Under the pieces are notes generated by a model. It saw only the letters and a program-made list of their open reading frames with translations, did not search any database and was not told the DNA's origin. Source: a plasmid. From it: a stretch of DNA of 33,568 nucleotides. The DNA lies in assembly GCF_988242995.1 (NCBI RefSeq), contig NZ_OZ547045.1. One strand, 5' to 3'. A program made the position numbers and the translations under genes. Shown piece after piece: positions 12,338 to 22,265 of the stretch (its first letter is position 1; each line of letters begins with the position of its first letter).

Positions 12338-12442
12338 TTTTGTTACACCGCTCCCGACCTATCCAAAAGCATCAAAATGTATGTTGCCAGTGTAACAAAA
12401 CTCGTTACAATAGTATGTGTAACAAAAACGGTGTAACAAAAA
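12338..12442. promoter_or_regulatory. res-like repeat cluster upstream of the serine recombinase
   Basis: GTGTAACAAAA occurs as a direct repeat at 12390, 12417 and 12431 and inverted at 12338..12348. There is also a TGTAAC-N7-GTTACA dyad at 12391..12409. Confidence 0.6.
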
Positions 12443-14056: not shown

Positions 14057-14400
14057 TTATCCACGTACATCCGACCCCCCTGATTACCGTACATCCGACC
14101 CCCCTTGTCGTACATCCGACCCCCTAGCTTTGTACATCCGACCCCCTAAGTCGTACATCCGACCCCCTTTTTTTGTACATCCGACCCCCTATTTTTTGTA
14201 CATTAGACCCCCTGAAAATACGTACATCAGACCCCCCCTAAACCTATAAGGTGATCTCCTGTAGGTTTCCTGTAGTTTGACCGATAGCACTTAACCTATA
14301 AATTTTGCTTCTAAGAGATCAGCCTGTATGAATGCCCTCCGATAATTTATTCAATAAAATCAGTGGATAAAATAATAAATCGAATAATTTAAGTTCAGTG
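14057..14400. other. oriV region: DnaA boxes flanking the iterons plus an A+T-rich segment
   Basis: TTATCCACG at 14057..14065 abuts iteron 1. GTGGATAA (the box on the minus strand) is at 14363..14370. The stretch 14330-14400 is strongly A+T-rich. Confidence 0.7.
14065..14238 (+). repeat. oriV iterons: 8 direct repeats of GTACATCCGACCCCC
   Basis: Copies start at 14065, 14089, 14110, 14132, 14153, 14175, 14198 (GTACATTAGACCCCC) and 14222 (GTACATCAGACCCCC). Spacing is 21-24 bp. Confidence 0.9.
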
Positions 14401-15133: not shown

Positions 15134-15579
15134 CGCCTCAGAACCCCGTAGAGCCATTCAATCAGAAAAAAGCGGCCTCATGTACAGCTCAACCAAAATA
15201 GCCGCTTACAGAGCCATACAGCGCGTATATAACCAATATCGCCCGGCGGCACCGGCGCTAACGTGCCTGTAGGGGCGCTGGCCGCGCTGCGGCCATCCCC
15301 CCAACACCCGGATAAATCGCGCCCGGCCCGTCGCTACGCGCCAGCCCGCCCGCTCAACCGGGCCGTTGTGACGGGCCACTGTTCCGGCAGCGGCATCGTG
15401 TGACAGCCCGCTAAAACCGGCTTTGCAGGGAGGGGGTGGGCGCGTCTCCCGGTTTGATCCCGCAAGGCCCGGCAATTTGACCACGTCGCCCAGGTTGAGA
15501 TCGGCGCAGTTGCCTTTTATTTGTCGGCATCGGCGCTAAATTTAAGTAAATTTATCGTACTATATAATGATACTTAAAG

Positions 15580-15608
15580 TTGACTTTTGAGGGGGAAAAG
15601 CCTATACT
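15580..15608 (+). promoter_or_regulatory. Promoter P1 (TTGACT-N17-TATACT)
   Basis: -35 at 15580..15585, -10 at 15603..15608, exact 17-bp spacer. AATGATAC lies just upstream. Confidence 0.75.
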
Positions 15609-15615
15609 TTATTTA

Positions 15616-15690
15616 CGGTTAGCAATGGTGCTGACCGACCCGGAACCAGTGGCGGCAACCGCTCCGGGGAACTTGCGAAGGGGGCAAGAA
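15616..15690 (+). promoter_or_regulatory. Structured leader L1 (hairpin 1 + hairpin 2 + TGCGAAGG SD block)
   Basis: CGGTTAGCA-ATGG-TGCTGACCG, then CCCGG-AACC-AGTGG-CGGCAA-CCGCT-CCGGG, then TGCGAAGG 10 nt before the ATG. Confidence 0.7.
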
Positions 15691-15960
15691 ATGAATTTAA
15701 CCACACTGCTTAAAAAGCATTTTGATATTGAGGAATGTACAGATGTAGACCCTATGGTAAACCGGGAGGTTTACGCCATATGGGTTTATGAAAAAGGCGA
15801 GGATTGCGAGCCGCTTTTAATCCTCAAAGATGCTCAGGATGTTATGGGCGTAGACGGCTGGCTTGTCGGGAATATCTATTCCACGTTGCAACATGGCTTA
15901 TTGCTTCAGCATGAAGAACTGAAAATGATGATCCGAAACGGCGAGATTAAGAGCCGTTAA
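15691..15960 (+). CDS. Hypothetical leading-region protein (89 aa)
   Basis: The ATG at 15691 follows the conserved leader/SD. The ORF-track start at 15580 lies in the promoter. Confidence 0.65.
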   Translation: MNLTTLLKKHFDIEECTDVDPMVNREVYAIWVYEKGEDCEPLLILKDAQDVMGVDGWLVGNIYSTLQHGLLLQHEELKMMIRNGEIKSR

Positions 15961-15969
15961 ATGTTTATG

Positions 15970-16048
15970 CGGTCGGCAATGGTGCCGACCGGCCCGGAAT
16001 CAGCGGCGGCAACCGCTCCGGGCAAACTGCGAAGGTACAGAGGCTAAT
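15970..16048 (+). promoter_or_regulatory. Structured leader L2 (intercistronic, no promoter)
   Basis: CGGTCGGCA-ATGG-TGCCGACCG carries compensatory changes relative to L1. It has a full hairpin 2 and CTGCGAAGG. Confidence 0.7.
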
Positions 16049-16264
16049 ATGTCAGTAAAAGATTTCTCCCCTACCCTGGAAATTAAATTCCATCGTCGCC
16101 GCTGGCGTATCATGGCTGGATGCTCAAGCCTGGCGTCGTTCCGCTCCGAGCAGGACGCGATTGATGCGCTCAATAAGCGGCGCTCATTCTATGAATATTG
16201 GGCCGGTTCTGCCGGTGTCCAGGCAGAGAACACCGAGCCGGTGATAGTCCACATAACCTATTGA
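16049..16264 (+). CDS. Hypothetical leading-region protein (71 aa)
   Basis: The ORF starts after leader L2 and is followed by a terminator. Confidence 0.6.
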   Translation: MSVKDFSPTLEIKFHRRRWRIMAGCSSLASFRSEQDAIDALNKRRSFYEYWAGSAGVQAENTEPVIVHITY

Positions 16265-16274
16265 ACACTTTTAA

Positions 16275-16297
16275 AGCCCGTAAACCGGGCTTTTTTA
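16275..16297 (+). terminator. Rho-independent terminator
   Basis: GCCCG-TAAAC-CGGGC followed by TTTTTT. Confidence 0.75.
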
Positions 16298-16341
16298 GTC
16301 TTTAAAGTACAATTAAAAGTAAAAAATAATGATACCAATAG

Positions 16342-16370
16342 TTGACTTATGGAGGGTGAACACCTATACT
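16342..16370 (+). promoter_or_regulatory. Promoter P2 (TTGACT-N17-TATACT)
   Basis: -35 at 16342..16347, -10 at 16365..16370. AATGATACC lies upstream. It has no GC-rich CUP segment. Confidence 0.75.
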
Positions 16371-16378
16371 TTATTCAT

Positions 16379-16453
16379 CGGTTAGCAATAGTGCTGACCG
16401 GCCCGGAACCAGCGGCGGCAACCGCTCCGGGCAAACTGCGAAGGAGTAATATT
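16379..16453 (+). promoter_or_regulatory. Structured leader L3
   Basis: Hairpin 1 has loop ATAG. Hairpin 2 is full length. CTGCGAAGGAG precedes the ATG at 16454. Confidence 0.7.
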
Positions 16454-17281
16454 ATGTTATCTAGCCGTTTTCGTTCTGCAAATATCCTGCGTTCTGACCG
16501 CCCTCTTAACGATGATCAAATCATGCGTTATGCCCCGTCTATCTTTGCAACTGAAGCGCATGAAAGCCGCTCTGACCGGTACGCTTACATTGCGACCAGC
16601 GAAGTGTTAAACGGTTTGCGTGATAACGGTTTTCATCCGTTTATGGTTTGTCAGACTCGCGTTCGCAACCTGGATAAGCGCGAACACACCAAGCACATGA
16701 TCCGTCTGCGTCATGCCGGGCAAATTAACGGTACAGAAGCGAAGGAAATCATTTTGCTTAACTCGCACGATGGCAGCAGCAGCTATCAAATGCTGGCCGG
16801 TGTATTCCGTTTCGTTTGCCATAACGGTTTAGTGTGTGGTGATACGGTAGCGGATATTCGTATTCCCCATAAAGGCGATGTTACCGAGCGCGTTATTGAA
16901 GGGGCATTTGAGGTGCTGGATCAGTTTGATATGGTTGAAAGCCATATGGAATCTATGAAGTCTGTAACGCTGGATGCGCTGGAGAAGCGTATTTTTGCAG
17001 AAGCGGCGTTAGCACTGCGTTATGACGAACAAAAAGACGGCCCCGCACCAATCGCCGCTAGCCAGCTCCTTGAGGCGCGCCGTTTTGAAGATCGCAAAGA
17101 TGATTTATGGACAACGTTTAACCGCGTACAGGAAAACATTATCCGTGGTGGTTTGAGCGCCAGAACCAAACAGGGGAAATCAACCCGTACCCGCGCCGTA
17201 ACTGGTATGGATAAAGATACGTCTTTAAACCGCGCTTTATGGATTCTCAGCGAGCGCATGAATGAAATTAAAGCCGCTTAA
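16454..17281 (+). CDS. DUF932-family protein (common in plasmid/ICE leading regions)
   Basis: 275 aa from MLSSRFRS... . [28 protein letters not shown]...[27 protein letters not shown] fits DUF932, as I recall it. The ORF-track start at 16349 lies in the promoter/leader. Confidence 0.75.
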
Positions 17282-17289
17282 TGGCAAAT

Positions 17290-17314
17290 GCCCCGCTTAC
17301 CGGCGGGGCTTTTA
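17290..17314 (+). terminator. Hairpin + T-run between the DUF932 gene and ssb (probable attenuator)
   Basis: GCCCCGC-TTACCG-GCGGGGC followed by TTTTAT. ssb has its own SD downstream (AAGGTG). Confidence 0.5.
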
Positions 17315-17337
17315 TCAACCCGAAAAAGGTGATTATC

Positions 17338-17838
17338 ATGGCTTCAAGAGGTGTTAATAAAGTAATTCTGGTCGGCAATTTAGGCCAAGATCCTGAAGTG
17401 CGTTATATGCCGAACGGCGGCGCGGTTGCCAACATTACGCTAGCCACGTCAGAAAGCTGGCGCGACAAGCAGACCGGCGAAATGAAAGAACAAACGGAAT
17501 GGCATCGCGTTGTATTATTCGGCAAGCTGGCAGAGGTCGCCGGGGAATATCTGCGCAAGGGTTCGCAGGTGTACATTGAGGGCCAGCTCAGAACACGTAA
17601 ATGGACAGATCAAGCTGGCGTGGACAAGTACACTACAGAGGTTGTCGTTAACGTTGGCGGCACTATGCAGATGTTAGGCGGTCGCCAGCAAAACGGCTCT
17701 CAGCCAGGTAATAATGAATGGGGCCAGTCGCAGCAGCCGCAAGGCGGCCAGCAGTTCAGCGGCCAGCCACAGAACACCGGCGCAGCGCCAGCGGCAGGAA
17801 ATGAGCCGCCTCCTTTTGATGATGATATTCCGTTTTAG
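17338..17838 (+). CDS. ssb: Single-stranded DNA-binding protein
   Basis: [44 protein letters not shown]..., with a Gly/Gln-rich linker and an acidic tip DDDIPF. Confidence 0.95.
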
Positions 17839-17856
17839 CCCTGATAAATATTTAAA

Positions 17857-17872
17857 TGTAAATTTATTTACA
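17857..17872. promoter_or_regulatory. A+T palindrome upstream of the KorA-like gene, containing TAAATTTA
   Basis: TGTAAAT-TT-ATTTACA. The TAAATTTA core also occurs twice in each CUP copy (for example 18806..18813 and 18816..18823). Confidence 0.4.
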
Positions 17873-17961
17873 GATTTATCTAAATAAATAACCGTTTTAG
17901 AGTTAACCTTCTGTAATTATTGATTAAATCGGCCCGTTTTCGGGCCGTAATGAGGTAAAAA

Positions 17962-18264
17962 ATGGCAGTAGAACGCATTTCCCCTGAAGAATGGCAGCGC
18001 ATCGCACCGGCATTGCGTACATGCAGCCAGGTAACGATCGATATGGCTTATGCCGTACTGGTTGATGGCCGTAAACAAGTAGATGTGGCGTCAGAGTTTG
18101 ACCGGTCAAAGCAAACGGTCAATGCGGCTATCAGGCGCGTTACTGCAATTTTTAACGAGGTTATCCCGGAAGATGAGCAGTTAGAATTTGTACAAGTCTG
18201 GTTGCCGCCAGAGCTGGCGAAGCAGGTAAAAGAAATGGCTAAACCGTATCAGAATAAAAAATAA
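17962..18264 (+). CDS. KorA/TrfB-family HTH repressor (ArdK-like candidate regulator of the leading-region promoters)
   Basis: 100 aa. The protein is colinear with RK2 KorA as I remember it (...TIDMAYAVLVDGRKQVDVASEFDRSKQTVNAAIRRV...). Confidence 0.7.
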   Translation: MAVERISPEEWQRIAPALRTCSQVTIDMAYAVLVDGRKQVDVASEFDRSKQTVNAAIRRVTAIFNEVIPEDEQLEFVQVWLPPELAKQVKEMAKPYQNKK

Positions 18265-18848
18265 CAGGAGTTATCGACATGTGTGAGTACGGATTTAAAA
18301 ACTAACTGAAAAAAATCACTTATGGCGTTCCCTGCGGGGCGGGCTTTCGTGCTGCGCATCGAGCCAGGCAAGCTGTCTCGCCCCTTCGGGCTTCAATCCC
18401 TAACGCCTCCGGGCTGTCGCCCTCCGCGCTCCGCTTGACCCCCACGCCCTGCGCCGGACTTGCCCCGCCTACGGCGGCCCCGCCCCTCCGGGGTGGCTTC
18501 GCCATCCTCTGCCAGCGGCACCGGCGCTAACGTGCCTGTAGGGGCGCTGGCCGCGCTGCGGCCATCCCCCCAACACCCGGATAAATCGCGCCCGGCCCGT
18601 CGCTACGCGCCAGCCCGCCCGCTCAACCGGGCCGTTGTGACGGGCCACTGTTCCGGCAGCGGCATCGTGTGACAGCCCGCTAAAACCGGCTTTGCAGGGA
18701 GGGGGTGGGCGCGTCTCCCGGTTTGATCCCGCAAGGCCCGGCAATTTGACCACGTCGCCCAGGTTGAGATCGGCGCAGTTGCCTTTTATTTGTCGGCATC
18801 GGCGCTAAATTTAAGTAAATTTATCGTACTATATAATGATACTTAAAG

Positions 18849-18877
18849 TTGACTTTTGAGGGGGAAAAGCCTATACT
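18849..18877 (+). promoter_or_regulatory. Promoter P3 (TTGACT-N17-TATACT)
   Basis: -35 at 18849..18854, -10 at 18872..18877. Confidence 0.75.
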
Positions 18878-18885
18878 TTATTTAT

Positions 18886-18959
18886 CGGTTAGCAATGGTG
18901 CTGACCGACCCGGAACCAGCGGCGGCAACCGCTCCGGGCAATCTGCGAAGGTGGGAATT
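18886..18959 (+). promoter_or_regulatory. Structured leader L4
   Basis: Full hairpin 1 and hairpin 2, with CTGCGAAGG before the ATG at 18960. Confidence 0.7.
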
Positions 18960-19268
18960 ATGAATACTTTCAACGCTGACAAAATCCGCTCTGAACTGGA
19001 TGTTTTAGCGAAAGAAACAATGCCCGGTTGTGGTCTTATTTACGAGCTGTATCAGCGTCGTTTGAGCGCTGCCATTGATAACTTTGTCGCTACCCTGCCA
19101 GCAGAACAACACGCCCAGGCATTTGAACTGGCCCGCCAGGAGTTTGATTACCTTTCTGCGGAAGAAATTGCTGATGAAATCCGCCGCGACTCAGAAAACG
19201 GCTATTGCAGCCACGGCATTGATCGCAATTGCTGCCCTTTGGGTTGCGGGGATTTGGACGATTATTAA
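18960..19268 (+). CDS. Hypothetical acidic leading-region protein (102 aa) with a Cys-rich C-terminus
   Basis: The ATG follows leader L4. The C-terminus is CSHGIDRNCCPLGCGDLDDY. Confidence 0.65.
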   Translation: MNTFNADKIRSELDVLAKETMPGCGLIYELYQRRLSAAIDNFVATLPAEQHAQAFELARQEFDYLSAEEIADEIRRDSENGYCSHGIDRNCCPLGCGDLDDY

Positions 19269-19303
19269 TTGACAGGGGGCTATTGCCCCCTACAACCAAA
19301 ACG

Positions 19304-19351
19304 GGCGGCGGCAACCGCCACTATTTAAACAATCTGCGAAGGATATAGATT
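19304..19351 (+). promoter_or_regulatory. Partial leader L5 (hairpin-2 core + CTGCGAAGG)
   Basis: GGCGG-CGGCAA-CCGCC, where the outer pair has changed from A-T to G-C. CTGCGAAGG is at 19334..19342. Confidence 0.6.
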
Positions 19352-19774
19352 ATGAGCGCATACGTGGTATCTGATAAATCCATTTCTACTATCGTTAAAA
19401 CTCTGGTTATTGCCGGTACACTTCAACCTGTCGAAGCTGTTTCTTTTGGTCAGATGATGCTTAATCTGAATACTCATTCCGTTAATATTCGCTATCAAGA
19501 AAACAGCCCGGCGCACCCTTTTGAATACAGCGACCCGGAATTAAATATCCATGACCCCAAAACTCAAATGCAGGTGATTGTCTGTATTGATGAATATGAA
19601 TATCAGTCCTGCGAGTTTGCCGAATACTATGAAACGATGGTGCATACAGTCCTAAAAGCCATCAAATCAGCGCTTATGCAGGCTTACACGGATATGTTGC
19701 CTAACCCATCGCAATGGAAAGAAAAAAAGTCCTATGACTTGCCAGGCTACTCAGAAGCTGAATGGGGTTTATGA
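19352..19774 (+). CDS. Hypothetical leading-region protein (140 aa)
   Basis: The ORF follows leader L5 and is followed by two hairpins. Confidence 0.65.
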   Translation: MSAYVVSDKSISTIVKTLVIAGTLQPVEAVSFGQMMLNLNTHSVNIRYQENSPAHPFEYSDPELNIHDPKTQMQVIVCIDEYEYQSCEFAEYYETMVHTVLKAIKSALMQAYTDMLPNPSQWKEKKSYDLPGYSEAEWGL

Positions 19775-19808
19775 TTGAACGGGGGGGAAATCCCCCCCTT
19801 CTACCTGA

Positions 19809-19829
19809 AGGGGCTACGCCCCTTTTTTT
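19809..19829 (+). terminator. Rho-independent terminator, preceded by a G7/C7 hairpin at 19781..19798
   Basis: AGGGGC-TAC-GCCCCT followed by T7. Confidence 0.75.
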
Positions 19830-19848
19830 ATGCCGGTTTTATGCCGCT

Positions 19849-20003
19849 TACTTATGGCGTTCCCTGCGGGCCGGGCTTTCGTGCTGCGCATCGAGCCAGG
19901 CAAGCTGTCTCGCCCCTTCGGGCTTCAATCCCTAACGCCTCCGGGCTTTCGCCCTCCGCGCTCCGCTTGGCCTCCGGGCTTTCGCCCTCCGCGCTTTGCT
20001 TGG
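19849..20003 (+). repeat. Partial CUP module M1 with an internal 33-bp tandem duplication
   Basis: Matches the first ~120 bp of copies B and C. The unit CCTCCGGGCTTTCGCCCTCCGCGCTCCGCTTGG (19938..19970) is repeated at 19971..20003 with 2 substitutions. Confidence 0.85.
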
Positions 20004-20031
20004 CCTTTCCAGCCGGTGCCAGCTCCGGGCC

Positions 20032-20284
20032 GCGAGGATAACCGGCGGGAGGCGAACTGTCCTCCACAGCTCCCCGTTCCGTTGGATGGTCTGCCGTTCC
20101 TCCATTACCGGTATTCCACACTAGCGCGGTGTGGCGTCAATAGTTCGCTTCGCCGCTTCGCGCTATTGACCCCACCCCTTGCGCCAGTGTTACACACCGG
20201 TTGTCGGAAACGACAAACCCTCCAACTACCCTACAGGTGCTTTATGGCCGAAATTCTCCAACTCCTCCCGCCGGTTATCCTCGC
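20032..20284 (+). repeat. Perfect 21-bp long-range inverted repeat bracketing a structured 211-nt segment
   Basis: GCGAGGATAACCGGCGGGAGG (20032..20052) pairs with CCTCCCGCCGGTTATCCTCGC (20264..20284). Internal hairpins are CCACAC/GTGTGG, GTCAATAG/CTATTGAC and TTGTCG-GAAA-CGACAA. Confidence 0.9.
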
Positions 20285-20348
20285 TATTGCAGCCCTCATC
20301 ACAGCCATCACCGGGCTAATAAAAGTCCTGAAAAGCAAGAAGAAGTAA
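20244..20348 (+). CDS. 34-aa hydrophobic peptide with a Lys-rich tail (type I toxin-like)
   Basis: MAEILQLLPPVILAIAALITAITGLIKVLKSKKK, with an AGGTG SD 5 nt upstream. Codons 7-14 form the right arm of the 21-bp inverted repeat. A strong terminator follows. Confidence 0.55.
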   Translation: MAEILQLLPPVILAIAALITAITGLIKVLKSKKK

Positions 20349-20351
20349 CGG

Positions 20352-20380
20352 AAAGGGGCGGCAAGCCGCCCCTTTCCCCT
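20352..20380 (+). terminator. Rho-independent terminator
   Basis: AAAGGGGCGGC-AA-GCCGCCCCTTT, an 11-bp stem. Confidence 0.8.
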
Positions 20381-21004
20381 GCTCCCCTTGCTTACCCTGC
20401 TGTACGATCCGTGGATTTCACAGTTGAATAATTTTTTGTGGTCGCCGTAATTGGCCCCGCTGCGCCAGTCGCTTACTTAGGGCGTTCCCTGCGGGCCGGG
20501 CTTTCGTGCTGCGCATCGAGCCAGGCAAGCTGTCTCGCCCCTTCGGGCTTCAATCCCTAACGCCTCCGGGCTTCGCCCTCCGCGCTCCGCTTGGCCCCCA
20601 CGCCCTGCGCCGGACTTGCCCCGCCTACGGCGGCCCCGCCCCTCCGGGGTGGCTTCGCCATCCTCTGCCAGCGGCACCGGCGCTAACGTGCCTGTAGGGG
20701 CGCTGGCCGCGCTGCGGCCATCCCCCCAACACCCGGATAAATCGCGCCCGGCCCGTCGCTACGCGCCAGCCCGCCCGCTCAACCGGGCCGTTGTGACGGG
20801 CCACTGTTCCGGCAGCGGCATCGTGTGACAGCCCGCTAAAACCGGCTTTGCAGGGAGGGGGGGGGCGCGTCTCCCGGTTTGATCCCGCAAGGCCCGGCAA
20901 TTTGACCACGTCGCCCAGGTTGAGATCGGCGCAATTGCCTTTTATTTGTCGGCATCGGCGCTAAATTTAAGTAAATTTACCGTACTATATAATGATACTT
21001 AAAG

Positions 21005-21033
21005 TTGACTTTTTAGGGGGGAAAATCTATACT
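21005..21033 (+). promoter_or_regulatory. Promoter P4 (TTGACT-N17-TATACT)
   Basis: -35 at 21005..21010, -10 at 21028..21033. Confidence 0.75.
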
Positions 21034-21040
21034 TTATTTA

Positions 21041-21113
21041 CGGTTAGCAATGGTGCTGACCGACCCGGAACCAGCGGCGGCAACCGCTCCGGGTAATCTG
21101 CGAAGGAAAATGT
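21041..21113 (+). promoter_or_regulatory. Structured leader L6
   Basis: Full hairpins 1 and 2, with CTGCGAAGG before the ATG at 21114. Confidence 0.7.
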
Positions 21114-21395
21114 ATGAATACGACCCTTTTTGTTTTAATCCTTGCCGTAGCTGGCGCGTTGTATCTGCCCTGGCGACTTGTGCGCGATGGTTACAAAGAG
21201 CTTGTACAGATGTGTCTGTTTTGCTCCTGTATCGTCACGCTGGCCGCTGTATATGCCGTGTTGGTCAATCTCAATAACCCACACCCGTTTATGCCTATGT
21301 TTATCGCGGTAACGGCGTTCGGTGCGGTATTTGTGGCTGATTGCGCTTTATCTCTCTGGCTCTATCAGCGTAAAGCTAAGACGGCTAACCACTAA
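21114..21395 (+). CDS. Small polytopic membrane protein (93 aa)
   Basis: The ATG follows leader L6. There are three hydrophobic segments. A terminator follows. Confidence 0.65.
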   Translation: MNTTLFVLILAVAGALYLPWRLVRDGYKELVQMCLFCSCIVTLAAVYAVLVNLNNPHPFMPMFIAVTAFGAVFVADCALSLWLYQRKAKTANH

Positions 21396-21406
21396 CCACT
21401 AACTAA

Positions 21407-21429
21407 ACCGCCCTGCGGGGCGGTTTTTA
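21407..21429 (+). terminator. Rho-independent terminator
   Basis: ACCGCCC-TGC-GGGGCGGT followed by TTTTT. Confidence 0.75.
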
Positions 21430-21449
21430 ACCGTGATACGGGGGCAATT

Positions 21450-21692
21450 ATGGGAAACATCATTTTGATGGCCGAGAAGCTAAAAGGCGCGGTTTCCGAT
21501 GAATATGAAGTGTATGAATTTGAGGGCATGGATGATTTGATCCGGTTTCGTAAGAAATACCCGGAACAAATGAAGTATGAATATTCTTACTGTCTATCTG
21601 GCGGTACGAAAGATTTTCACCATATTGCGCTCGTCGAAGCTGACCATTTTAAGCAGTTCAAAAAGCAGGTTGACCAGTACCAGGCTCGATAA
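21450..21692 (+). CDS. Hypothetical leading-region protein (80 aa)
   Basis: ORF with a G-rich SD (acgggggcaattATG). A terminator follows. Confidence 0.55.
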   Translation: MGNIILMAEKLKGAVSDEYEVYEFEGMDDLIRFRKKYPEQMKYEYSYCLSGGTKDFHHIALVEADHFKQFKKQVDQYQAR

Positions 21693-21699
21693 CCTTGAA

Positions 21700-21727
21700 C
21701 GGCGCGGCAATACCGCGCTGTTTTTTA
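21700..21727 (+). terminator. Rho-independent terminator
   Basis: CGGCGCGG-CAATA-CCGCGCTG followed by TTTTTT. Confidence 0.7.
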
Positions 21728-21746
21728 CCCTCTATTTATGTCTTAT

Positions 21747-21771
21747 TTTAGTATCATATTATGATACTAAA
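21747..21771. promoter_or_regulatory. Perfect 25-bp palindromic operator abutting promoter P5
   Basis: TTTAGTATCATA-T-TATGATACTAAA. The right half (ATGATACT.AA) is the element conserved upstream of P1-P4. Confidence 0.65.
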
Positions 21772-21773
21772 TA

Positions 21774-21802
21774 TTGACTTATCAGGCCGCAAAAAGTATA
21801 CT
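21774..21802 (+). promoter_or_regulatory. Promoter P5 (TTGACT-N17-TATACT)
   Basis: -35 at 21774..21779, -10 at 21797..21802. Confidence 0.75.
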
Positions 21803-21810
21803 TTATTTAT

Positions 21811-21851
21811 CGGTTAGCAATGGTGCTGACCGTATGCGAAGGAGTAAAGTT
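21811..21851 (+). promoter_or_regulatory. Truncated leader L7 (hairpin 1 + TATGCGAAGGAG; hairpin 2 absent)
   Basis: CGGTTAGCA-ATGG-TGCTGACCG is joined directly to TATGCGAAGGAG. Confidence 0.6.
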
Positions 21852-22007
21852 ATGAAAAAATTCATTGGCAACCGTAACGGCAAGGCGGTTTTTCAGGAAG
21901 GTGATCGTGAGTTGGTAGCCGCTTACCAGATGAAATCCTCCCCGATTCCGGTAACGCCACGCAAGCTGAAAGCTGAAATGGATGCTATCGCCGCTACAGC
22001 CCGATAA
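21852..22007 (+). CDS. Hypothetical small protein (51 aa)
   Basis: The ATG at 21852 follows leader L7 and a strong SD (GAAGGAG). Confidence 0.55.
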   Translation: MKKFIGNRNGKAVFQEGDRELVAAYQMKSSPIPVTPRKLKAEMDAIAATAR

Positions 22008-22043: not shown

Positions 22044-22082
22044 AGCGGCGGCAACCGCTTTTTTATGCGAAGGAGCAACGCG
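22044..22082 (+). promoter_or_regulatory. Partial leader L8 (hairpin-2 core + T-run + TATGCGAAGGAG)
   Basis: AGCGG-CGGCAA-CCGCT-TTTTT, then ATGCGAAGGAG before the ATG at 22083. Confidence 0.55.
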
Positions 22083-22265
22083 ATGTATCTATCTTTGATG
22101 GAACAAGCACGACAGGCAGAGGAATTGCGCGACTGGAAAACCGCCGCGCAACTCTACACCCAGGCGATGGCCGTTAGTCCAAAAGCCAGAACTATGCGCC
22201 AGCGCCGCGAAAGGCTGTATCTGCAACAGCGCATTGAGTTTTGCGAGCGTAATTCGAGAATGTAA
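22083..22265 (+). CDS. Hypothetical helical small protein (60 aa)
   Basis: The ATG at 22083 follows leader L8. A bidirectional terminator follows. Confidence 0.55.
   Translation: MYLSLMEQARQAEELRDWKTAAQLYTQAMAVSPKARTMRQRRERLYLQQRIEFCERNSRM

Follow-up and report, generated by a model that had tools for sequence, protein, structure and literature searches.

Several plasmid systems are known in which the leading region is controlled by ArdK, a repressor related to KorA. For plasmids of incompatibility group N (IncN), a conserved upstream repeat (CUP) regulon has been described for IncN1 and annotated for IncN2 (PMC6289460, PMC5371602, PMC5027574). In the IncN1 plasmid R46, according to Delver and Belogurov (1997) as cited in PMC5027574, PMC5371602, PMC6294495 and PMC6289460, each leading-region operon is preceded by a CUP of more than 400 bp that carries an ArdK-binding site as well as a promoter. 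For IncN1 ArdK, binding to CUP-type sequences has been shown by electrophoretic mobility shift assay and repression by a reporter (PMC6289460, citing the same work). ArdK of the IncW plasmid R388 represses five establishment promoters, as established with reporters and crystal structures, the repeats adjoining the -35 box or lying at it, and displays negative feedback and an overshoot after conjugation (PMC9723621). Here, a plasmid stretch of 33,568 nucleotides (GCF_988242995.1, contig NZ_OZ547045.1; referred to in full as the window) was analyzed with respect to five near-identical promoters, P1 to P5, and an ardK gene located among them. Judging from sequence comparisons, the system appears to be an IncN CUP/ArdK regulon, a known type of circuit, in an IncN3 version with a diverged dyad operator.

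The 6.8-kb region carrying the promoters matched 797 plasmid records, the top match being the IncN plasmid pCFSAN004085 (98% identity). Since pCFSAN004085 is 33.8 kb long and has the same gene order, the window represents essentially an entire plasmid. The gene order is also common to pN-Cit, the IncN3 reference, which falls within the same plasmid group; the window is an almost whole IncN3 conjugative plasmid of the pN-Cit group, and its relatives were typed as replicon IncN, MOBF and MPF_T. Genes are arranged as resolvase, repA, five co-oriented small operons, a SprT-like gene, stbCBA, the type IV coupling protein and the relaxase, an order that mirrors the leading region of R46. What an earlier note made from the sequence had called an island is thus the leading region of a conjugative plasmid, with a CUP-type regulon that adjoins stbABC and oriT and is transcribed towards oriT. 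The GC-rich part of the long repeats described below shared 70-80% identity with R46 CUPs (blastn), and on this basis P1 to P5 are read as the CUP promoters of an IncN3 leading-region regulon.

Five exact matches to TTGACT-N17-TATACT were found in the window, all on the + strand (at 15580, 16342, 18849, 21005 and 21774), vs. none in 100 dinucleotide-preserving shuffles, in full agreement with the five identical hexamer pairs and 17-bp spacers reported in the earlier note. The spacer sequences had also been described as different, which holds between lineages; within one of them, the P1 spacer equals that of P3 and the P4 spacer differs at 3 positions, P2 and P5 being distinct. The promoters and the genes that they drive are the following:

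15580-15608, + strand: P1 promoter, TTGACT-N17-TATACT, driving open reading frames (ORFs) of 89 aa (15691-15960) and 71 aa (16049-16264)
16342-16370, + strand: P2 promoter, driving a DUF932 gene (16454-17281), ssb (17338-17838) and ardK
18849-18877, + strand: P3 promoter, driving a ccgAII-like ORF (18960-19268) and a 140-aa ORF (19352-19774)
21005-21033, + strand: P4 promoter, driving the ORFs 21114-21395 and 21450-21692
21774-21802, + strand: P5 promoter, driving ORFs of 51 aa (21852-22007) and 60 aa (22083-22265)

P1, P3 and P4 lie inside long direct repeats (full units of about 530-630 bp), whose 300-nt repeat families show 99-100% identity, and one 99-nt repeat family takes in all five promoters. 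The repeat inventory comprised three long copies, two short promoter-proximal copies and one solo fragment. The long copies are located as follows:

15148-15681, + strand: long CUP copy with P1, made up of a GC-rich upstream part, an AT-rich part, the operator, the promoter and the leader (repeat families D1-D4)
18318-18951, + strand: long CUP copy with P3 (repeat families)
20475-21106, + strand: long CUP copy with P4 (repeat families)

Given these shared repeat families, the five promoters are not independent, and effectively represent three lineages (P1/P3/P4, P2 and P5). Their hexamers agree with the sigma-70 consensus at 10 of 12 positions; together with the 17-bp spacer, this favors repression over activation, and the conserved site upstream of each promoter was therefore read as a putative repressor operator. 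The solo fragment (19850-19975, 126 bp) corresponds to the 5', GC-rich end of a CUP without a promoter; it shares 97% identity with 18318-18443, which suggests that CUP copies have recombined in the past.

The motif ATGATAC was found in 10 copies in the window vs. 3.3 expected, five of them ending exactly 6 nt 5' of a -35 hexamer. Its presence ahead of every promoter had been correctly pointed out before, with a gap given as 4-5 bp; the gap is 6 nt, and 5 nt only when the motif is extended by the T that comes next in 4 of the 5 copies. At P5, a sixth copy on the - strand (21751-21757) forms the perfect 25-bp palindrome TTTAGTATCATA-T-TATGATACTAAA (21747-21771), as had likewise been recognized. 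In an alignment of 13 promoters from four IncN3 plasmids, namely the window and three plasmids about 90% identical to it (alignment A1), GTA-N8-TGATAC-N6-TTGACTT-N16-TATACT was invariant in 13/13 promoters amid the diverged flanks of the three lineages, and for this reason the element was defined as a 17-bp dyad, GTAnnA-N5-TGATAC. Its proximal arm is invariant, while the distal arm is partial except at P5, where in the window it is perfect; the P5 orthologues in the alignment retain both arms, and in pN-Cit the dyad is perfect at a promoter of the P1 type. A search for GTAnnA-N5-TnnTAC yielded exactly five sites in the window (0.36 expected), all of them at P1 to P5 and none at tra or kil promoters:

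15557-15573, + strand: putative operator of P1, GTACTA-TATAA-TGATAC, an imperfect inverted repeat (pattern scan and alignment)
16319-16335, + strand: putative operator of P2, GTAAAA-AATAA-TGATAC, in the same arrangement as in the Pseudomonas plasmid pPHE101
18826-18842, + strand: putative operator of P3, GTACTA-TATAA-TGATAC (pattern scan)
20982-20998, + strand: putative operator of P4, GTACTA-TATAA-TGATAC (pattern scan)
21747-21771: putative operator of P5, a perfect palindrome with the core GTATCA-TATTA-TGATAC at 21751-21767, the inverted repeat being retained in orthologues

The center of the dyad lies 14.5 bp 5' of the -35 hexamer, that is, at about -50 if transcription starts 7 nt past the -10 hexamer.

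The regulon of R46/pKM101 resembles that of the window in its IncN backbone, its leading-region location, the long same-orientation CUPs that end in a promoter with a TTGACT -35 box and a structured leader, and the ardK repressor gene within the same region. R46 CUP promoters read CGTACTTGTATTGACT-N17-GATAAT, and the 13-mer TACTTGTATTGAC is found in five identical copies, four of them at CUPs of R46 and the fifth at its ardK promoter; considering this identity and the "13 consensus nucleotides" of PMC6289460, it is presumably the ArdK site of R46. In contrast, this 13-mer was not detected in the window with up to 2 mismatches allowed, and the equivalent place is taken by a different conserved site, at which ArdK binding is predicted. 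While TACTTGTATTGAC abuts or overlaps the -35 box, the IncN3 dyad sits 6 nt upstream of it; moreover, R46 CUP promoters carry no ATGATAC and have the -10 hexamer GATAAT instead of TATACT. In R46, ardK has a promoter of its own (CUPA), whereas in the window it belongs to a CUP operon, and the window has no ArdK-type site at repA. The cargo differs as well, consisting of DUF932, ssb, the ccgAII-like ORF and unnamed small ORFs. The names ardA and ardB were absent among the CUP-driven ORFs (Pfam and NCBIfam scan) and in the annotation of the relatives, and no ArdR homologue was found in the window (tblastn); these absences are a matter of cargo, which varies between IncN subgroups, and not of control logic.

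The regulator predicted to act on these sites is encoded within the region:

17962-18264, + strand: ardK, a 100-aa predicted repressor of the KorA/TrfB family, ArdK subfamily, with the recognition helix SKQTVNAAIRRV

The protein matched Pfam KORA (PF16509) with 46.9 bits (gathering cut-off of 26.7; E=3.2e-12; residues 9-91), and a phmmer search of PDB placed R388 ArdK (7bca/7bbq) as its nearest solved relative (E=1.2e-12), followed by RP4 KorA (E=1.3e-4). An identical protein is annotated as "ArdK family" in pCFSAN004085, and identity to R46 ArdK was 36-38% over 90% of the length. KorA has a flexible Gly70 in the turn before the dimerisation strand, where ArdK has Glu (PMC9723621); at the position of this Pro-x-Gly turn the window protein reads IPEDEQLEFVQVWLPP, with no Gly (PEDEQ), and its linker is 3 residues longer than in R388 ArdK. 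KorA (TrfB) of the IncP plasmids RP4/RK2 shares with it the Pfam KORA family and is a global plasmid repressor with several promoters and a palindromic operator; it differs in the Gly of its Pro-Glu-Gly turn and in an operator with abutting arms that overlaps the -10 box. The earlier note had named the 100-aa protein as the repressor coordinating the promoters, a role for which its family, its characterized relatives and an invariant operator arm co-varying with the ArdK clade provide indirect support. As neither an R46-type site nor ArdR was found in the window, ArdK would be the only regulator linked to the regulon.

About 40 promoters from IncN3, Pseudomonas and other plasmids were compared. 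A common architecture was found, consisting of a 6-N5-6 inverted repeat, 6 nt and the -35 hexamer, with a half-site that varies by ArdK clade. A scan of all fetched loci for this generic geometry resulted in 53 matches vs. 7.4 in shuffles, about 40 of them preceding -10-like hexamers, and in a grid of spacer and gap lengths the sole peak corresponded to spacer 5 and gap 6, plus register shifts of it. The distal arm was perfect or one position off in most of the approximately 40 promoters of the relatives. The closest relatives of this ArdK outside IncN (42-52% identity) are encoded by Pseudomonas IncP-9-like plasmids, including pUTK21, pPHE101 and pNCGM3741, among others. These have the same 6-N5-6-N6-(-35) geometry, DUF932/ssb/ardK neighborhood and 5' untranslated region (5'-UTR) hairpin, yet their half-sites are TTTGAC, TTTTAC or TTGTAC instead of TGATAC, their -10 hexamers are GATACT or GATAAT, and they lack a long GC-rich IncN-type CUP at every promoter. 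The operators found together with increasingly distant ArdK proteins were:

pPHE101, ArdK 52% identical to that of the window: GTAAAA-N5-TGATAC and GTAAAA-N5-TTTTAC
pNCGM3741, ArdK 47% identical: GTCAAA-N5-TTTGAC
pL2757hy, ArdK 44% identical: GTCAAA-N5-TTTGAC
pLE43E, ArdK 42% identical: ATAAAC-N5-GTTTAT, ahead of a TTGAT -35 box

The type of operator sorted by ArdK clade, with almost no cross-matches, and also followed the recognition helix of the protein:

half-site TnnTAC: recognition helix SKQTV[N/H]AA
half-site TTTGAC: recognition helices TKQTAHAA, SRQNAHAA and SRQLVHAA
half-site GTTTAT: recognition helix STQAVFAT
R46 13-mer: recognition helix SKQNISST

This partition of half-sites by clade is the best available computational support for the link between ArdK and the operator, although in part confounded with plasmid lineage.

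Taken together, these observations make it likely that the IncN3 CUP promoters are controlled through the upstream 17-bp dyad, to which ArdK most probably binds as a dimer, repressing all five promoters, with feedback on its own synthesis and a burst of expression after transfer. What the comparisons show directly is the set of sequence features, how far these are conserved, the family of the protein and the clade-by-clade pairing of ArdK type with half-site; the circuit itself, from binding, stoichiometry and repression to the transcription start sites and the burst following transfer, is inferred. In it, the near-consensus sigma-70 promoters would be strong and fire without an activator, and an ArdK dimer bound to GTAnnA-N5-TGATAC would silence all five of them by clashing with sigma region 4 and the C-terminal domain of the alpha subunit at the neighboring -35 and UP region. 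Once the plasmid is established, ArdK would keep the regulon low, while upon entry into an ArdK-free recipient the five operons would burst until ArdK builds up, in an overshoot resembling zygotic induction. Such a burst has been proposed for pKM101 (PMC6294495) and reported for R388 (PMC9723621). Lacking a separate CUP promoter, ardK follows DUF932 and ssb as the third gene transcribed from P2, which implies a negative-feedback loop.

Several points weigh against this reading. The ArdK variant of the window, whose binding is predicted, is only 36-38% identical to R46 ArdK. The co-variation of half-site and clade is confounded with lineage, as any lineage-specific protein would co-vary; in addition, only about five ArdK clades were sampled, and one contig (L013) carries both TAC and GAC types. 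The center of the dyad near -50 leaves the core promoter without overlap, and the route of repression is not obvious. In the published view (PMC9723621), proteins of the ArdK clade sit as asymmetric dimers on direct repeats at the -35 box, a mode from which symmetric binding to an inverted repeat would depart. Finally, a terminator-like hairpin with a T-tract is present within the P2 operon, between the DUF932 gene and ssb (17290-17309); it could limit read-through from P2 to ssb and ardK, and the feedback path is therefore putative.

The alternative that survives best, although we regard it as unlikely, is that ArdK binds in the manner of R388, as an asymmetric dimer on direct repeats formed by TGATAC and the -35 box, occluding sigma-70, with the distal arm serving as an accessory or second-dimer site. 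The R388 system is alike in its small protein with a helix-turn-helix and a beta/alpha dimerisation part, in its approximately five establishment promoters, including that of ssb, in its negative feedback and in an operator beside the -35 box (PMC9723621; PDB 7bca, 7bbq, 7bcb). R388 ArdK-DNA crystals display head-to-tail binding even on an apparent inverted repeat, and the operators of the clade have been called direct repeats at the -35 box, with a 6-bp spacing in pNAH20 (PMC9723621). The proximal arm TTTGAC of the Pseudomonas relatives indeed repeats the -35 TTGAC with an 11-bp period, which is probably the reason why direct repeats are mentioned in the literature, and the arm GTTTAT of pLE43E resembles its -35 GTTGAT. 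In IncN3, however, only 2/6 positions of the proximal arm TGATAC agree with the -35 region GTTGAC, and the TGA-to-TGA distance is 13 bp, outside the start-to-start range of 9-11 bp tested for R388. In R388 the operator consists of two direct repeats, TTGACA-N4-TTGACA, the second of which is the -35 box itself, whereas the dyad of the window is located wholly upstream of -35; the base-contacting R45 of R388 ArdK is K in the protein of the window. The invariant distal GTA and the perfect palindrome at P5 also speak against this alternative, and pure direct repeats leave unexplained the perfect or near-perfect distal arms in most promoters of the relatives. As the resemblance to the -35 region has been lost in IncN3 while the dyad has been kept, the inverted-repeat reading is favored.

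Far less probable is the binding of another protein to the inverted repeat, such as a plasmid-encoded H-NS-like, Hha-like or IncN-type KorA protein or the host Fur, with ArdK acting elsewhere or being inactive at these sites. The plasmid does encode H-NS-family and Hha/YmoA-family proteins and another small regulator, the region is AT-rich, and ATAATGATA resembles part of the Fur box GATAATGATAATCATTATC (12-13/19 positions by hand). Nevertheless, the invariant positions are the G and C bases (GTA...TGATAC) rather than the A/T tract, a fixed 17-bp dyad is not required by H-NS, and the motif is confined to the five CUP promoters, away from tra and kil promoters. Homologous ArdK proteins have been shown to bind beside the -35 box of such promoters (PMC6289460, PMC9723621). 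The likeness to the Fur box was judged coincidental, since in the relatives the same geometry is built from GTCAAA/TTTGAC arms, which do not resemble Fur sites.

The least credible possibility is that there is no operator at all, the site reflecting the shared ancestry of a repeated segment, or a strong promoter's UP-element-like portion, with recombination among the CUPs keeping the copies uniform: the mutual identity of the P1, P3 and P4 repeats (99-100%) is indeed uninformative and positions -40 to -60 of strong promoters are often AT-rich, yet GTA-N8-TGATAC persists in 13/13 promoters of lineages P1, P2 and P5 that diverged on both sides of it, and the dyad geometry is maintained across genera with changed half-sites, a compensatory evolution of the arms that neither ancestry nor an UP element predicts.

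Besides the putative operator, every CUP promoter is followed by a conserved leader with hairpin 1 (with a loop containing GCAAT), hairpin 2 and the Shine-Dalgarno (SD) sequence GCGAAGG:

15609-15690, + strand: leader of P1, with hairpin 1 at 15616-15637, hairpin 2 at 15639-15668 (apex 15649-15662) and SD GCGAAGG at 15675-15681
16371-16453, 18878-18959, 21034-21113 and 21803-21851: equivalent leaders, the last one with hairpin 1 only
15649-15662, 16003-16016, 16412-16425, 18919-18932, 19305-19318, 21074-21087 and 22045-22058, + strand: copies of the hairpin 2 apex

The apex of hairpin 2, GCGG-CGGCAA-CCGC, is invariant, and the outer stem varies with compensatory changes. Hairpin 2, SD GCGAAGG(AG) and a start codon also occur ahead of internal ORFs without a promoter, and thus precede nearly every ORF of the leading region. 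Seven copies of the apex were found on the + strand of the window, one of them with a mismatch, whereas 0.36 would be expected by chance at a threshold of two mismatches. The same 14-mer was located ahead of leading-region ORFs in contigs of Pseudomonas, Enterobacter and Burkholderia/Paraburkholderia. Covariation was evaluated by a custom helix search, as the length of the bulge varies (alignment A5): a helix of at least 5 bp was present in 29/36 non-redundant copies vs. 3.0 (maximum 8) in shuffles, with about 20 helix variants and G-U wobbles that are sensible only on the mRNA strand. Rfam searches with the promoter and leader region gave no match above the gathering thresholds and none that was credible at E<1, and the searchable paper library did not contain the 14-mer; this would apparently be a covariation-supported 5'-UTR hairpin not described before.

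A bolder and more tentative proposal, which we consider possible rather than probable, is that in the IncN3 and Pseudomonas IncP-9-like branch ArdK acts as a symmetric dimer on the 17-bp dyad, 14.5 bp 5' of the -35 box and with the core promoter untouched, and that the GCGG-CGGCAA-CCGC hairpin adds a post-transcriptional layer. If true, the KorA/ArdK family would gain a third topology and position of the operator, and the direct-repeat rule of the literature would have an exception.

IncN-family plasmids are major carriers of carbapenemase and extended-spectrum beta-lactamase genes, and the ArdK/CUP circuit would set the burst of establishment functions (ssb, DUF932 and anti-defence candidates) that decide the survival of a newly transferred plasmid. 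Because the IncN3 operator GTAnnA-N5-TGATAC differs from the TACTTGTATTGAC of IncN1, the corresponding ArdK proteins are predicted to be orthogonal, and no mutual cross-repression is predicted between co-resident IncN1 and IncN3 plasmids. The operator also provides a search string for accidental silencing of resistance genes by ArdK, as occurs with blaIMP-6 in an IncN1 plasmid (PMC6289460). Moreover, the half-sites and recognition helices listed by clade represent natural repressor-operator pairs for specificity studies, in a family whose binding mode is unusually plastic.

Other candidate operators were considered and rejected. The A+T motif TAAATTTA, on which the proposal of a second repressor had been based, was present in 8 copies (1.1 expected), 6/8 of which are pairs within the three identical long repeats, and none is located at P2 or P5. 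It is altered to TAAATTTG in pCFSAN004085 and to AAAATTTA or TATCTTTA in the plasmids about 90% identical to the window, that is, it is not conserved even at about 90-98% identity, and being confined to the three identical long CUP copies it was discarded as a second operator; a second repressor acting through it is not supported. Similarly, TGTAAATTTATTTACA (17857-17872), which the earlier note had described as a palindrome ahead of ardK, is not a perfect palindrome but an inverted repeat of the form 7-2-7, and was dismissed as an ardK operator since it sits, outside the conserved circuit, in an insertion absent from relatives:

17839-17900: 62-bp AT-rich insertion between ssb and ardK, flanked by the 9-bp direct repeat CCGTTTTAG (alignment A2)

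The insertion has the inverted ends GATAAAT...ATTTATC, is missing from pCFSAN004085 and three other IncN3 plasmids (about 90% identical), and may have been left by a small mobile element or have arisen by slippage. An ArdK site at the resolvase/repA promoter (GTAACA-N5-CGTTAC, 12392-12408) was excluded as well, as it belongs to a set of several TGTAACAAAA repeats such as res sites typically have. Repeated TGTAACAAAA and TTTTGTTACA motifs surround the promoter of the serine recombinase gene (12340-12440), are kept in relatives and look like a res site overlapping that promoter.

Further observations concern the surroundings of ardK, repA and the end of the P5 operon. Directly 5' of the SD of ardK, a hairpin CGGCCC-N6-GGGCCG without a T-tract (17929-17946) has an invariant stem and a variable loop among four IncN3 plasmids, and may serve the processing, stability or translation of the ardK mRNA. 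An 8-codon mini-ORF located 3' of ardK (18279-18305; MCEYGFKN and a stop codon) is what a 315-bp in-frame deletion between two ATG-containing junctions has left of a 113-aa ORF, which pCFSAN004085 retains intact. Just 3' of repA (14089-14196), about five tandem copies of GTACATCCGACCCCC spaced by about 21-22 bp probably represent iterons, which would mark the replication origin. The 60-aa ORF that closes the P5 operon (22083-22265) matched the family ANR (AraC negative regulator; NF033650) weakly and below the cut-off, with E=7e-5.

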